DNA from: an uncultured Melioribacter sp.
Lineage (GTDB): Bacteria > Bacteroidota > Ignavibacteria > Kapaibacteriales > Kapaibacteriaceae
Assembly: GCA_964393485.1 (NCBI GenBank)
Contig: CAYMTW010000003.1
Span: forward strand, 13,773-77,772
Direction: 5' to 3'
Length of the DNA: 64,000 nucleotides
In this document: piece after piece, positions 19,632 to 49,955 of the stretch
Numbering within the stretch: position 1 is the first letter of the stretch
Layout: every line of letters begins with the position of its first letter
Translations under genes and position numbers: made by a program
The notes under the pieces: generated by a model
What the model was told of the DNA's origin: nothing
Database searches by the model: none
The model's input: the letters and a program-made list of their open reading frames with translations, nothing else

Positions 19632-19748
19632 TTTGAGGTGTGAGGTTTTGGGTTTGGGGTGTGAGGTGTCATTCCTGCAAATGCAGGAAGCGTGTTGCAA
19701 CTGACTACATCATCCGTATCCCGTATCCCGCACCCCATACCCCTCTTG
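19631..19748 (+). repeat. Repeat locus A: GT-rich heptamers + GTCATTCC hairpin unit + C-rich CCGTATC-type heptamers
   Basis: 19631..19665 reads GTTTGAG GTGTGAG GTTTTGG GTTTGGG GTGTGAG. It is followed by GTGTCATTCCTGCAAATGCAGGAAGCG (hairpin TTCCTGCA/TGCAGGAA, 19672..19689). 19714..19748 reads CCGTATC CCGTATC CCGCACC CCATACC CCTCTTG. Confidence 0.9.
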
Positions 19749-32664: not shown

Positions 32665-33399
32665 ATGCGAAGAGACATTACTTCGTGGCATAGCCCACGC
32701 CTCGACAAGACCATGGAGATCTGCACCTATGGTCATTTTGGCACGCCCATCCTGATGTTCCCGAGTGCCGCTGCCGACTATCTCGAGTATGAGCGGTTTC
32801 ATTTGATCGATAGCGTTAAAGAGCCCCTTGAGCAGGGCCGGATCAAGATCTTCTCGATCAACAGCATCAACAGCGAGGCCTGGCTCAACGATCTAATGGA
32901 AGGACGTCAGAAAGCCATCCGCCATCAGCAGTACAATGCCTACATCGTTGATGAGGTGGTGCCGTTCATTCACAACGATTGCGGCGGAGCACTACCGATC
33001 CTTACCTCCGGCGTTTCCCTTGGTGCCCTGCATGCCGTCAACACCATGTTCCGACGTCCGGATTTGTTCAGCGGCACCCTTGCTATGAGTGGCATCTACG
33101 ACCTCAAGGCCTACACGCAGGGCTACTTCGACGAGGACTGCTACTTCAACTCGCCAATGGATTATCTGCCCAATCTCAAGGAAGGGGCTATCCTGGATCT
33201 GCTTCGCACTGATAAACACATACACATCGCAACCGGCAGCGGCGCCTACGAAGATCCATCGGCCAGTGTCCTCTTTGGTGAGGTCCTCAGTGCCCTTTCA
33301 ATCCCCCACACCATCGATGTGTGGTCAAATGAGTGGACCCATGACTGGCCCACCTGGCGGGCAATGTTGCCGGCAATGGTAGCCAGGTGTGAGGTGTGA
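32665..33399 (+). CDS. Esterase-family (esterase D / putative esterase) hydrolase
   Basis: TYGHFGTPILMFPSAAADY and nucleophile elbow GVSLGALHAVN. The last codons and the stop lie in repeat locus B. Confidence 0.6.
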   Translation: MRRDITSWHSPRLDKTMEICTYGHFGTPILMFPSAAADYLEYERFHLIDSVKEPLEQGRIKIFSINSINSEAWLNDLMEGRQKAIRHQQYNAYIVDEVVPFIHNDCGGALPILTSGVSLGALHAVNTMFRRPDLFSGTLAMSGIYDLKAYTQGYFDEDCYFNSPMDYLPNLKEGAILDLLRTDKHIHIATGSGAYEDPSASVLFGEVLSALSIPHTIDVWSNEWTHDWPTWRAMLPAMVARCEV

Positions 33400-33525
33400 G
33401 GTTTGGGGTTTGGGGTGTGGGGTGTGAGGTTCCGTACCTCCGCAACTCTCTACCCCCGTAACTCCGTAATTCCGTAATTCCGTAATTCCGTAATTCCGTA
33501 CCTCCGTAATTCCGTAATTCCGTCC
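33387..33525 (+). repeat. Composite repeat locus B: six GT-rich heptamers + twelve TCCGTAAY-type octamers
   Basis: 33387..33428 reads GTGTGAG GTGTGAG GTTTGGG GTTTGGG GTGTGGG GTGTGAG. After a GT junction (33429..33430), octamers run from 33431: TCCGTACC TCCGCAAC TCTCTACC CCCGTAAC TCCGTAAT x4 TCCGTACC TCCGTAAT x2 TCCGTCC. The array fills the whole gap between two convergent genes. Confidence 0.95.
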
Positions 33526-33764
33526 TATCCTTCCATTTCATCAAAATCGATGTCATCGTCATCGAACGAGCCGCCGCCGATCTCGCCATCGCTCGATGCT
33601 GCGTCATAGATCTCGCGGGCTTCATCGAGATCATCTTCGAAGACGGACAGTTTGTAGCCGTCGGACTGACTATCTTGAAGTTTATAGTCTATCCCTGCAG
33701 CTTTCAGTTTTGAAGCTAGCAATTGGGCTTCGAGTTCGCTGGTAAATGTTGCTAGAAGGATCAT
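33525..33764 (-). CDS. Small acidic protein, DUF2007-like
   Basis: 79 aa. MILLATFTSELEAQLLASKLKAAGIDY resembles DUF2007. Asp/Glu-rich tail. Confidence 0.45.
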   Translation of the reverse strand: MILLATFTSELEAQLLASKLKAAGIDYKLQDSQSDGYKLSVFEDDLDEAREIYDAASSDGEIGGGSFDDDDIDFDEMEG

Positions 33765-33776
33765 TTCGTCACCTAC

Positions 33777-34412
33777 TCATTTCTTTGGCTGCAGAAACTT
33801 CTTCGCCTTTTCAGGGTTGGCCTGCATCCATTGCTGGGCTTCCTGATTGACGATCTCAAAAGTACGTTTTTGGTGTGCTTGCTTGAGCTCCGACGTAGGC
33901 TGGGCAAAAGACCAGATCATGCACCAGTTATTGCTCACGAGTAGGTCATCCTTCGTGTCAGAGCCGAGGACCTTTTCATCCTTACCGTAAAGAACTCGGC
34001 AGATGGCTTTACGCGCATCGTCCGGAAGTGGCTTTGACCAGCGGAAGTAGAGAATCACCCCGCCTTGCTTGCCTTTGTATGCCTGGATAAACTTCTGTGT
34101 TGGGGCCGCAAACTCCGGAAGCACCTTTTCCCACTTCGTCCAGAGTTTCTGTGCAGCAGGTGTAGCCGGCTTAACGCTTGCGGATTCCGTGTATCCGGAC
34201 GGTTGCTCACCCGGTACAAACTGAAAGCGCTCAAACGTCAGCGGGATCTCCCGGGACAAACCTGAAAAGTCATACCGGGTGGTTACTTCCTTGATCGTAA
34301 CATCTTTGCCAAGCGACTTTGTGATCTGGTCCTTCAAAGCCGAGCTCTGGCCGTAGGCTGAGATGGCAGCGAAGAGGATCGCAACGACAAGACAGAACCG
34401 CAATGATGGCAT
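33777..34412 (-). CDS. Secreted hypothetical protein (211 aa)
   Basis: Start moved from 34616 to M69 (cat 34410..34412). This gives signal peptide MPSLRFCLVVAILFAAISAYGQ and removes a ~200-nt overlap with ettA. No family recognised. Confidence 0.5.
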   Translation of the reverse strand: MPSLRFCLVVAILFAAISAYGQSSALKDQITKSLGKDVTIKEVTTRYDFSGLSREIPLTFERFQFVPGEQPSGYTESASVKPATPAAQKLWTKWEKVLPEFAAPTQKFIQAYKGKQGGVILYFRWSKPLPDDARKAICRVLYGKDEKVLGSDTKDDLLVSNNWCMIWSFAQPTSELKQAHQKRTFEIVNQEAQQWMQANPEKAKKFLQPKK

Positions 34413-34413
34413 A

Positions 34414-36096
34414 TCAATCACGAGTGAGTTTGCGGTATGATATACGATGTGGACGGTCAGCCTCGATGCCCAGGCGCTTGCGACGGTCTTCCTCGTACTG
34501 CGAGTAGTTTCCATCGAACCACACCACCTGACTGTCACCTTCAAAGGCCAGGATATGCGTGGCGATCCGGTCCAGGAACCACCGGTCGTGGCTGATGACC
34601 ACAGCGCAGCCGGCAAAGCCCAGGAGGGCTTCCTCGAGAGCTCGGAGCGTGTTCACATCAAGGTCATTTGTCGGTTCGTCCAGCAGGAGAACATTGGCCC
34701 CCTCTTTGAGCATTTTGGCCAGGTGGACGCGGTTACGTTCTCCACCCGAGAGCTGCGTGACCTTCTTTTGCTGATCGCTACCACTGAAGTTGAAACGTGC
34801 CACGTAGGCACGAGAATTCACTTCGCGTGACCCCAGCTGTACAACATCAAGACCGTCGGAGATCTCTTCCCAGATGGTCTTGTTCGGATCCAGTGGCCGA
34901 TTCTGATCGATATAGCCCAGCTTGACGGTGTCCCCGATGGAGAAGGAGCCCGCATCGGGGTGGAGTTGATCTGCGATCATCTTGAAGAGCGTGGTCTTAC
35001 CGGCACCGTTCGGACCGATGATGCCAATGATACCGCCCGGTGGTAGGGAAAACGATAAGTGTTCGTAGAGAAGTTTATCACCAAACGACTTGGACACATC
35101 GACAGCATCAACGACCTTGTCACCCAGGCGCGGTCCAGCTGGAATGAAGATCTCCATTTCCTCGTTTCGCTTGATGGATTCTTCTTCGAGCATCTTCTCA
35201 TACGCCGAGATACGCGCCTTGCTCTTGGCATGACGTCCCTTGGGGTTCATCCGAACCCACTCAAGCTCTTCCTTCAGGGCCTTCTGACGCTTTGATTCCT
35301 GCTTCTCTTCCTGGGCAAGGCGTGCCTGTTTCTGTTCCAGCCAGTTCGTGTAATTACCCTCGAACGGAATTCCATGGCCGTTGTCGAGCTCAAGGATCCA
35401 CCCGGCAACGTTGTCAAGGAAGTACCGGTCGTGCGTCACAGCAATGACCGTGCCTTCGTAGTCGTGCAGGTGGCGCTCAAGCCAACCCACACTCTCGGCA
35501 TCAAGGTGGTTGGTCGGTTCATCCAGCAGGAGCACGTCTGGCTTCTGTAGCAGCAACCGTACCAGCGCTACGCGACGTCTCTCACCGCCGGAGATCACAT
35601 TGATCGGTGTGTCAGGGGGCGGACAGCGCAGAGCATCCATAGCCATTTCGAGCTTCGAGTCAATGTCCCATGCTCCCATGGCATCGATCTTTTCCTGAAG
35701 CTTGGCCTGCTTATCCAGCAGCTTATCAAAGTCCGCATCGGGATCGGCGAACTGCTCGCTGATAGCGTTGTAGTCCTTGAGAAGCTGCACAGCTTCCTGA
35801 GCACCCTCCTCAACGATCTCTCGTACAGTTTTGTTCGGGTCGAGTTCGGGCTCCTGGGACAGGTACCCGAAAGTGACATCTTTGTTCTTTGTGATCTGCC
35901 CGACGTACTCGTCATCGAGTCCGGCAATGATCTTCAAAAGCGTTGACTTTCCGGACCCATTCAAGCCCAAAACGCCGATCTTGGCGCCGTAAAAGAAGCT
36001 TAGGTAAATGTCGCGTAAAACTTGACGGTTGGGCTTATAGACCTTGCCCACCCCGACCATGCTAAAGATGATTTTCTGGATTTCTGGTTGTGCCAT
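34414..36096 (-). CDS. ettA: Energy-dependent translational throttle protein EttA (ABC-F)
   Basis: Collinear with E. coli EttA over the full length. Two cassettes (GLNGSGKST / LSGGERRRVAL; GPNGAGKTT / LSGGERNRVHL). Confidence 0.93.
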   Translation of the reverse strand: MAQPEIQKIIFSMVGVGKVYKPNRQVLRDIYLSFFYGAKIGVLGLNGSGKSTLLKIIAGLDDEYVGQITKNKDVTFGYLSQEPELDPNKTVREIVEEGAQEAVQLLKDYNAISEQFADPDADFDKLLDKQAKLQEKIDAMGAWDIDSKLEMAMDALRCPPPDTPINVISGGERRRVALVRLLLQKPDVLLLDEPTNHLDAESVGWLERHLHDYEGTVIAVTHDRYFLDNVAGWILELDNGHGIPFEGNYTNWLEQKQARLAQEEKQESKRQKALKEELEWVRMNPKGRHAKSKARISAYEKMLEEESIKRNEEMEIFIPAGPRLGDKVVDAVDVSKSFGDKLLYEHLSFSLPPGGIIGIIGPNGAGKTTLFKMIADQLHPDAGSFSIGDTVKLGYIDQNRPLDPNKTIWEEISDGLDVVQLGSREVNSRAYVARFNFSGSDQQKKVTQLSGGERNRVHLAKMLKEGANVLLLDEPTNDLDVNTLRALEEALLGFAGCAVVISHDRWFLDRIATHILAFEGDSQVVWFDGNYSQYEEDRRKRLGIEADRPHRISYRKLTRD

Positions 36097-36109: not shown

Positions 36110-36183
36110 GTTTTAGGTGTGAGGTGTGGGGTGTGGGGTTCCCTCCGTAACTGAGTAACTCAGTAATTCCGTAACTCAGCAAT
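36110..36183 (+). repeat. Composite repeat locus C: four GT-rich heptamers + five TNNGTAAY octamers
   Basis: GTTTTAG GTGTGAG GTGTGGG GTGTGGG, then junction GTTCCC, then TCCGTAAC TGAGTAAC TCAGTAAT TCCGTAAC TCAGCAAT. Same order and GGGGTTCC junction as locus B. Confidence 0.9.
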
Positions 36184-41043: not shown

Positions 41044-41101
41044 AATTCCCGCTTTCGTGGGAATGACCTTCACCTCAAACCTCACACCCCAAACCTCACA
41101 C
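41044..41101 (-). repeat. Repeat locus D: GT-rich heptamers + GTCATTCC hairpin unit (read on the minus strand)
   Basis: The minus strand reads GTGTGAG GTTTGGG GTGTGAG GTTTGAG GTGAAG GTCATTCCCACGAAAGCGGGAATT. The hairpin is TTCCCGC/tttc/GTGGGAA at 41046..41063. Same module order as locus A. Confidence 0.9.
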
Positions 41102-41113
41102 CTGCGCGCGGCG

Positions 41114-49774: not shown

Positions 49775-49778
49775 GAGA

Positions 49779-49955
49779 ATTACGGAATGACGGAAATACT
49801 GAGTTACTGAGTTACTGAATTACGGAGGTACGGAGGTACGGAGGTACGGAGGTACGGAGGTACGGAGGTTCGGAGGTTCGGAGGTACCCCGTCATCCCTG
49901 CGAAAGCAGGGATCAATCTTTGATTGCCTGGGTCCCTGCTTTCGCAGGGATGACG
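49779..49955 (+). repeat. Repeat locus E: 14 octamers (reverse orientation of loci B/C) + 66-bp perfect palindrome made of two GTCATCCC hairpin units
   Basis: 49779..49890 reads ATTACGGA ATGACGGA AATACTGA GTTACTGA x2 ATTACGGA GGTACGGA x5 GGTTCGGA x2 GGTACCCC. 49890..49912 (CGTCATCCCTGCGAAAGCAGGGA) is the exact reverse complement of 49933..49955. The 20-nt spacer holds a third small hairpin (CAATC ttt GATTG). Confidence 0.95.

Follow-up and report, generated by a model that had tools for sequence, protein, structure and literature searches.

The window analysed here, a 64,000-nt stretch of DNA from an uncultured freshwater Kapaibacterium, contains an esterase-family gene (PF00756; 32665..33399, + strand) that converges on a small gene encoding a DUF2007 protein of 79 aa (PF09413; 33525..33764, - strand), and the 138-nt gap between them is wholly occupied by two simple-repeat arrays. 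The first of these, located at 33385..33430 (+ strand), consists of 6.6 G/T-rich heptamers of the GGTKTGR type (TRF period 7, score 57); read from 33387, its units are GTGTGAG, GTGTGAG, GTTTGGG, GTTTGGG, GTGTGGG, GTGTGAG and a final GT. On the + strand, which is the sense strand of the esterase gene, this arm is composed of 59% G and 0% C. The octamers abut the heptamers without any gap from 33431 and form the second arm (33431..33524, - strand), with ~12 units, TCCGTAAY on the + strand and ATTACGGA on the - strand, which follow each other on the + strand in the order TCCGTACC TCCGCAAC TCTCTACC CCCGTAAC TCCGTAAT x4 TCCGTACC TCCGTAAT x2 TCCGTCCT. TRF reports this arm at 33456-33523, with a period of 8, 8.5 copies and a score of 115, and its composition is 37% C and 12% G on the + strand, that is 37% G and 12% C on the - strand, the sense strand of DUF2007. 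The TGA of the esterase gene (33397-33399) falls within the second heptamer, so that the C-terminus ..ARCEV and the stop are encoded by the array, and the DUF2007 stop (33525-33527) adjoins the last octamer; the array therefore spans the full 138 nt between the ancestral gene ends.

This arrangement, six heptamers followed by about twelve octamers from the last esterase codons to the DUF2007 stop, had been described in an earlier sequence-only reading, and it is borne out by the sequence and by TRF, including the series GGGG TTT GGGG TGT GGGG TGTGAGG quoted from the heptamer arm. The accompanying claim that the array is non-coding holds, save for the last esterase codons. A CRISPR, which is defined by repeats of 24-48 nt and unique spacers of similar length, had rightly been set aside, the units being 7 and 8 nt long, contiguous and without spacers. 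Beyond the DUF2007 gene, the longest ORF at 33777-34616 (- strand) encodes 279 aa and matches no Pfam family; the gene calls on Logan assemblies give a 211-aa product that starts near the signal-peptide-like MPSLRFCLVVAILFAAISAYG.

Unit-step variation and orthologous gaps

Ten independent Logan assemblies, from different runs, encode an identical DUF2007 protein and represent the same species. Where the octamer arm is readable in them, it measures 70, 78 or 94 nt, in exact 8-nt steps, and all the differences lie within the internal run of perfect ACGGAATT units, present in 1, 2-3 or 4 copies. In the heptamer arm, ACCCCAC and ACCCCAA units are swapped and the length remains 44 nt. Logan contigs are built with k=31, at which four or more perfect octamers are not resolvable, and the copy numbers seen set no upper limit; three contigs stop after three perfect octamers, as expected if four or more are present in these samples. 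The variants with 1-3 octamers are real, since such runs have unique flanks and do not reach the length of the assembler k-mer. The length of the array changes in unit steps, as expected of slipped-strand mispairing.

It could be argued that the array results from misassembly or from the collapse of a repeat, given that 19 of the 244 contig ends in the MAG fall within such arrays, where assemblers struggle, and that the contig of one relative (L019, from G004) ends inside the same orthologous array, after two heptamers. The same structure, bounded on each side by unique sequence, has nevertheless been recovered in independent MAGs that come from different studies, and it is present in the Logan assemblies of 10 different runs, two of which cover the whole gap. 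This reading is effectively refuted, with hardly any probability left to it.

The closest relatives are MAGs named Candidatus Kapaibacterium or 'Ignavibacteria' from lakes and rivers (NCBI lineage Bacteroidota, Kapaibacteriaceae), and the two-part array was found at the orthologous site in four other species-level MAGs. Besides the truncated contig mentioned above, the gap holds about 9.7 heptamers and 5.8 octamers in L013 (G015), 10.6 heptamers and 6.0 octamers in L021 (G014), and 3.6 heptamers, 17 unique nt and 14.4 octamers with a unit shifted to TCCCGTAA in L022 (G013). Between species, the arms range from 3.6 to 10.6 heptamers and from 5.8 to 14.4 octamers, and the copy-number polymorphism that had been predicted is consequently seen at both levels, in the unit counts of different species and in the 70, 78 and 94 nt within one. 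Other relatives carry other repeats at this site: heptamers, two inverted REP-like hairpins (F and R, with a spacer between them) and GTCACTC repeats in L015; about 19 GATTACT/GATGACT units, a hairpin and inverted AGTAATC units in L016; and AGCGAGT-type heptamers followed by CAGTAAC or CCCTAGT units in L023 and L025. In three other species, the orthologous gap is free of repeats, with genes that overlap by ~29 nt in L014 (G001) or lie 22-23 nt apart in L017 and L018 (G003). The arrays are dispensable.

The window, L013 and L021 have the same junction, GAGGT|TCCGTAA, and they lie on both sides of an esterase tree that is poorly resolved, with open forks. This shared junction suggests that the two-part array was probably ancestral to the subclade and that its loss or replacement has since occurred on several occasions. 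Wherever a species bears an array, the first repeat units provide the esterase gene with its final 2-4 codons and its stop: the C-termini read ..ARCEV, ..ARFGV, ..RRFAQG, ..RRCAQV or ..GRMTDY, compared with ..ARL in the repeat-free species. The last esterase codons have been overwritten by the array, which supplies the stop.

A search for the pattern GGTKTGR x3 in 151 genomes of the order gave dense matches (30-160) in no more than 5 genomes, all of the genus; in two other genera, three genomes showed a few matches, largely equalled by a control pattern. Members of the genus without GGTKTGR x3 still bear other heptamers (AAGAGAC, TGTCACT, TTGGGTT, AGGTTTC). The phenomenon is therefore genus-wide, its units turn over, and a pattern search understates its extent. 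Among the relatives, L014, L021, L025 and L026 are Kapaibacterium-like by gene content and identity, yet they are labelled as Patescibacteria group, Chitinophaga pinensis or Didemnitutus, which suggests mislabelled or chimeric public bins. In a Chloroflexia MAG (L071, 3213-3316), a distant esterase homologue (36% identity) is followed by inverted heptamer arms, AGAAATC and TTCTGAT, and the same architecture therefore occurs in another phylum.

Array family and strand polarity in the genome

The genome, a 2.27-Mb MAG of 122 contigs with 56% GC, contains about 190-230 arrays of period 7 or 8. At a TRF score of at least 50 (the TRF and skew thresholds used here are arbitrary), 75 period-7 and 41 period-8 arrays were found in the real genome, and neither period was found at this score in a third-order Markov simulation of the whole genome. 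Periods 5, 6, 9-11 and 13 yielded only 0-2 arrays at the same score; arrays of period 14-21 are also present, as multiples of 7 and 8 and as 18-20-nt repeats. The heptamers are dominated by the families GGTTTTA/GGTGTGA/GGGGTTT, GGGGTAC and GTCATTN/GTCACTN, and the octamers by TCCGTAAY/CCTCCGTA/CTCAGTAA. Outside crude ORFs lie 65% of the array bases, against 6.7% of the genome overall, with genes called by a greedy longest-ORF heuristic that overestimates coding density; the cases within ORFs are mostly weak chance repeats in genes, or arrays under spurious or over-extended ORFs. Convergent gaps hold 40% of the arrays and represent 16% of the gene pairs. Divergent gaps, with 17% of the arrays and 16% of the gene pairs, show no depletion. 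The copy number per array has a mode of 5 and a broad spread, four units not being preferred, and heptamer-to-octamer junctions like that of the esterase/DUF2007 gap number only 3 in the genome.

The claim that these arrays form a recurrent family in the window is well founded, and it extends to the genome. Four other loci in the window share their modules. At 36115..36179 (+ strand), between two minus-strand genes and upstream of ettA, a second composite has G-rich heptamers followed in the same order by TCCGTAAC/CTCAGTAA octamers. At 19634..19745 (+), a hairpin core (REP-like, 19668-19689) is preceded by G-rich heptamers (19634-19669) and followed by C-rich CCGTATC/CCCATAC units from 19714, with the same polarity. 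At 41045..41103 (+), a REP-like hairpin in R orientation (41045-41067) precedes the C-rich heptamers ACCTCAA/CACCCCA. Finally, 49777..49954 (+) contains G-rich octamers, GAATTACT and then TACGGAGG x8, an F hairpin (49891-49913), a spacer and an R hairpin (49931-49954).

Two further observations concern the repeats of this genome. The heptamer and octamer arrays, together with 19-nt and 30-nt tandem repeats, fragment the MAG: contigs C5, C13, C16, C18 and C30, and also C8 and C27, have, for example, ends in heptamer/octamer arrays or in the 19-nt tandem repeat TGCGCCGTAGGGGGACGGC, and in C13 a stretch of N interrupts a tandem series of 30-nt hairpin units. The 9-mer AGCCCCYTG is an over-represented word, reminiscent of DNA uptake sequences or HIP1, with 694 copies on both strands compared with ~29 in the Markov simulation. 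Its copies are single, dispersed and without strand bias per contig, and seemingly mostly intragenic, judging from the context of 14 of them; an 11-mer version lies in the window at 1435, 5446, 6687, 51397 and 54385.

The polarity of the family was scored as the G-C skew of each array. The G-rich strand coincides with the sense strand in 60 of the arrays at stop codons and runs counter to it in 5, a genome-wide rule (binomial p ~7e-12 for all gene boundaries, starts included). The ratio of sense-G-rich to opposite arrays is 27:2 in convergent gaps, 14:3 in tandem gaps and 47:5 for arrays that overlap the stop codon itself; it is 15:10 at start codons, which is not significant, start positions being unreliable because of the crude longest-ORF calls. 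Arrays located 60-300 nt downstream of a stop are, in turn, sense-C-rich in a ratio of 46:13. The polarity is independent of the unit sequence, of the period and of the potential to form quadruplexes. Adjacent arrays are ordered G-rich then C-rich in 20 pairs and in the reverse order in 0, and the corresponding counts in the loci of relatives are 11 and 1, several of these being the same orthologous esterase/DUF2007 site. This order arises because stop-anchored arrays are sense-G-rich and two of them meet in a convergent gap. Both arms of the esterase/DUF2007 gap obey the rule. The two-period structure can therefore be read as two polar arrays, one per gene, grown until they met. The sequence-only reading was correct in seeing two arrays rather than one microsatellite, each arm belonging to one of the convergent genes; its proposition that abutting arrays of unlike period need a special explanation falls away, since each arm follows the stop-codon polarity found genome-wide.

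Origin of the arrays and of their polarity

We consider it likely, with good confidence, that the gap holds two independent heptamer/octamer simple-sequence arrays of the LSSR/STRR kind, each anchored at a stop codon and G-rich on the sense strand of the gene, and that they do not constitute one element. According to this proposal, the heptamers of the GGTGTGA type would be those of the esterase gene, the octamers of the ATTACGGA type (TCCGTAAT on the + strand) those of the DUF2007 gene, and the meeting of the two in the middle of the gap would produce the two-part G-rich then C-rich pattern. The arrays gain and lose whole units, the outcome expected of slippage during replication or repair. 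The arrays would occupy DNA just behind the stop codons that is transcribed and free of ribosomes, a location that may be the cause of the polarity: repeats with a G-rich non-template strand may be favoured by a bias linked to transcription, G-rich sense RNA may be a poor substrate for Rho or prone to R-loops, and Rho would load on the C-rich complement present in read-through or antisense RNA.

A different origin is suggested by the REP-like hairpin GTCATYCCYGCGAAAGCRGGRAT, with its GAAA loop, of which the genome has about 100 copies, often as inverted doublets or tandem runs. These hairpins resemble REPINs, nest between G-rich and C-rich array arms and share the polarity of the arrays, with a strict grammar: FR pairs number 16 and RF pairs 0, a G-rich array lies to the left of F in 14 cases, and R lies to the left of a C-rich array in 18. 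It can be hypothesised that the esterase/DUF2007 gap is a hairpin-less form or remnant of a composite made of a G-rich array, F, a spacer, R and a C-rich array, which would be spread or maintained in a transposition-like manner. The orthologous gap of L015 has exactly such a series of heptamers, F, spacer, R and second array, and that of L016 has inverted GATTACT/AGTAATC arms around a hairpin. The esterase/DUF2007 gap of the window, however, has no hairpin, and neither do the three orthologous gaps with arrays that are closest to it; the two arms share neither sequence nor period, and heptamer-to-octamer junctions of this kind are as rare as stated above. A solitary ORF resembling HUH/Y1 transposases does exist outside the window (G000:C35:15385-15864; PF01797, 30.8 bits) and would be consistent with mobilisation, but it was rejected as a RAYT mobiliser of the hairpins, scoring 26.9 bits for NCBIfam IS200 and 21 bits for REP_Tyr_transpos, both below cut-off, and being without flanking hairpins. 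We regard a REPIN-like origin of this locus as unlikely.

The sequence-only reading had emphasised G-quadruplex or i-motif formation. On this view, the heptamer arm would function as a G-quadruplex element and its complementary strand would form an i-motif, as has been proposed for the GGGNATC repeats of Xanthomonas and Nostoc. The three GGGG runs and the flanking GG runs make two-tetrad quadruplexes conceivable. The canonical motif of four G3+ runs separated by N1-7 is, however, absent from the heptamer arm, where G3+ runs number only three; the orthologous arrays do not conserve the count of G runs and have even fewer GGGG runs; and only 22 of the 158 strand-biased arrays of the genome carry the canonical motif. 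Moreover, the octamer arm shows the same polarity without any G runs, and a preference for four units is lacking in the distribution of copy numbers. The emphasis on quadruplexes is accordingly not upheld, and such a function is very improbable here.

It is conceivable that the dyad of G-rich and C-rich arms has been selected as a bidirectional Rho-dependent terminator or insulator, in which each transcript would first pass its own G-rich, Rho-blind arm and then the rut-like, C-rich complement of the arm of its partner. This proposition is consistent with the strength of the polarity and its independence from unit sequence and period, with the presence of Rho in the genome, and with the composition of the read-through RNA, in which C would make up 59% over 46 nt, with 0% G, in one transcript, and 37% over 94 nt, with 12% G, in the other. 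In addition, no intrinsic terminator (a GC-rich stem-loop followed by a U tract) was found in a scan of 33380-33530. Against it, close relatives have neither array nor terminator, even where the genes overlap, the copy number drifts freely, and single arrays give their own transcript no rut site. Selection of the dyad as an insulator appears quite unlikely. The polarity suggests a transcription-linked bias, for which a Rho-based insulator, or an expansion promoted by R-loops of arrays with a G-rich non-template strand, would be plausible. In more general terms, we attach a similarly low probability to the hypothesis that the polarity reflects a co-transcriptional process acting wherever ribosomes leave the mRNA, whether expansion driven by R-loops or a selection that is Rho-blind outward and Rho-loading inward. 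Were such selection real, convergent genes would be insulated by these dyads, acting as sequence-agnostic boundary elements that renew themselves.

Other candidates were rejected. A CsrA sponge formed by repeated ACGGA is untenable in a genome without CsrA, and the units have not been selected to carry stop codons, since a stop triplet occurs in 73 of 158 G-rich strands and in 74 of 158 C-rich strands. No promoter was found in a scan of the array, RNA folding of both strands was not better than that of shuffled sequences (z-scores of -1.05 and +0.18), and Rfam gave no match at E<=1 over 33000-34000. Taken with the array-free relatives and with the lack of a terminator, a fold, an Rfam family, a canonical quadruplex motif or an enrichment in stops, dispensable arrays driven by slippage are therefore the best-supported account. 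We think that the array has no essential function, and that it would at most be a spacer or insulator that lengthens both 3' UTRs. Slippage accounts for the change in length; it does not account for the dominance of a few unit families at more than 100 loci, nor for the restriction to periods 7 and 8.

Comparison with known repeat classes

Few unexplained features of bacterial intergenic DNA are as common as arrays of heptamers and octamers, and these arrays break short-read assemblies. If their polarity has a transcriptional cause, be it Rho or R-loops, this would explain the repeat class across many phyla. The nearest precedent is provided by the G-rich heptamers GGGAATC of Xanthomonas and GGGGA(C/T)T of Nostoc PCC 7120, which are G-rich on the sense strand in the 50 bp that follow stop codons, which vary in copy number and sequence between close relatives at the same intergenic sites, which are under-represented between divergent genes and for which no function was found (Rehm et al, 2015; PMC4692102). 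The arrays described here are likewise dispersed genome-wide in intergenic regions, sense-G-rich after stops (60 vs 5) and variable among relatives. They differ in the phylum, in the units, in the existence of octamers and in their enrichment in convergent gaps, and, in contrast to the Xanthomonas and Nostoc heptamers, they show neither a preference for four units nor a depletion in divergent gaps and mostly have no canonical quadruplex motif.

The TAACTGA direct repeats of marine Beggiatoaceae, some Cyanobacteria and Bacteroidetes lie mostly just upstream of start codons, in forward orientation, with CsrA as one proposed binder (MacGregor, 2015; PMC4679880). They resemble the present arrays as intergenic heptamers that may overlap gene ends, vary in 7-nt steps between strains and are known in Bacteroidetes. 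The arrays of this genome, which lacks CsrA, are instead anchored at stop codons, have other units and show no significant polarity at starts, and they do not belong to the TAACTGA type. With the REP/REPIN/BIME mosaics, whose REPIN definition does not include tandem direct repeats (Bertels and Rainey, 2011; PMC3116915), the genome shares inverted hairpin doublets between array arms at other loci. The esterase/DUF2007 gap has no hairpin and no convincing RAYT was found, and the palindromic hairpins, inverted doublets and RAYT that define REPs and REPINs are thus not what characterises this locus.

A broader frame is given by the long simple sequence repeats (LSSR) of Mrazek, Guo and Shah (2007), which have units of 5-11 nt, are dominated by heptamers and occur across prokaryotes (summarised in PMC4692102 and PMC4679880). 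The likeness covers tandem units of 7-8 nt, lengths far above chance, intergenic location and sporadic occurrence by lineage; the survey reportedly describes neither stop-codon polarity nor paired G-rich and C-rich arms, and its sample reportedly lacks Kapaibacteria. The arrays of this genome possess every feature of the class, namely units of 5-11 nt repeated beyond chance, a mainly intergenic location and copy numbers that are unstable by whole units. The STRR heptamers of heterocystous cyanobacteria, attributed to Mazel and colleagues in 1990 (cited in PMC4692102), reportedly form several families at many loci per genome and are said to be hypervariable. The similarity lies in several heptamer families dispersed over one genome and in this hypervariability; the name STRR is nevertheless tied to heterocystous cyanobacteria and to the units of STRR1-3, such as CCCCAGT, and a Kapaibacterium-like host within Bacteroidota, with GGTKTGR and TCCGTAAY units and with octamers, lies outside it.

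The esterase/DUF2007 gap is an addition from the Kapaibacteria to a known, widespread and functionally unexplained class of bacterial repeats of 7-8 bases. The contribution is modest, consisting of this example and of some statistics on a known phenomenon, and the locus offers a clean worked example of two polar arrays that meet, of unit-step polymorphism within a species, and of a C-terminus and a stop codon rewritten by an array.
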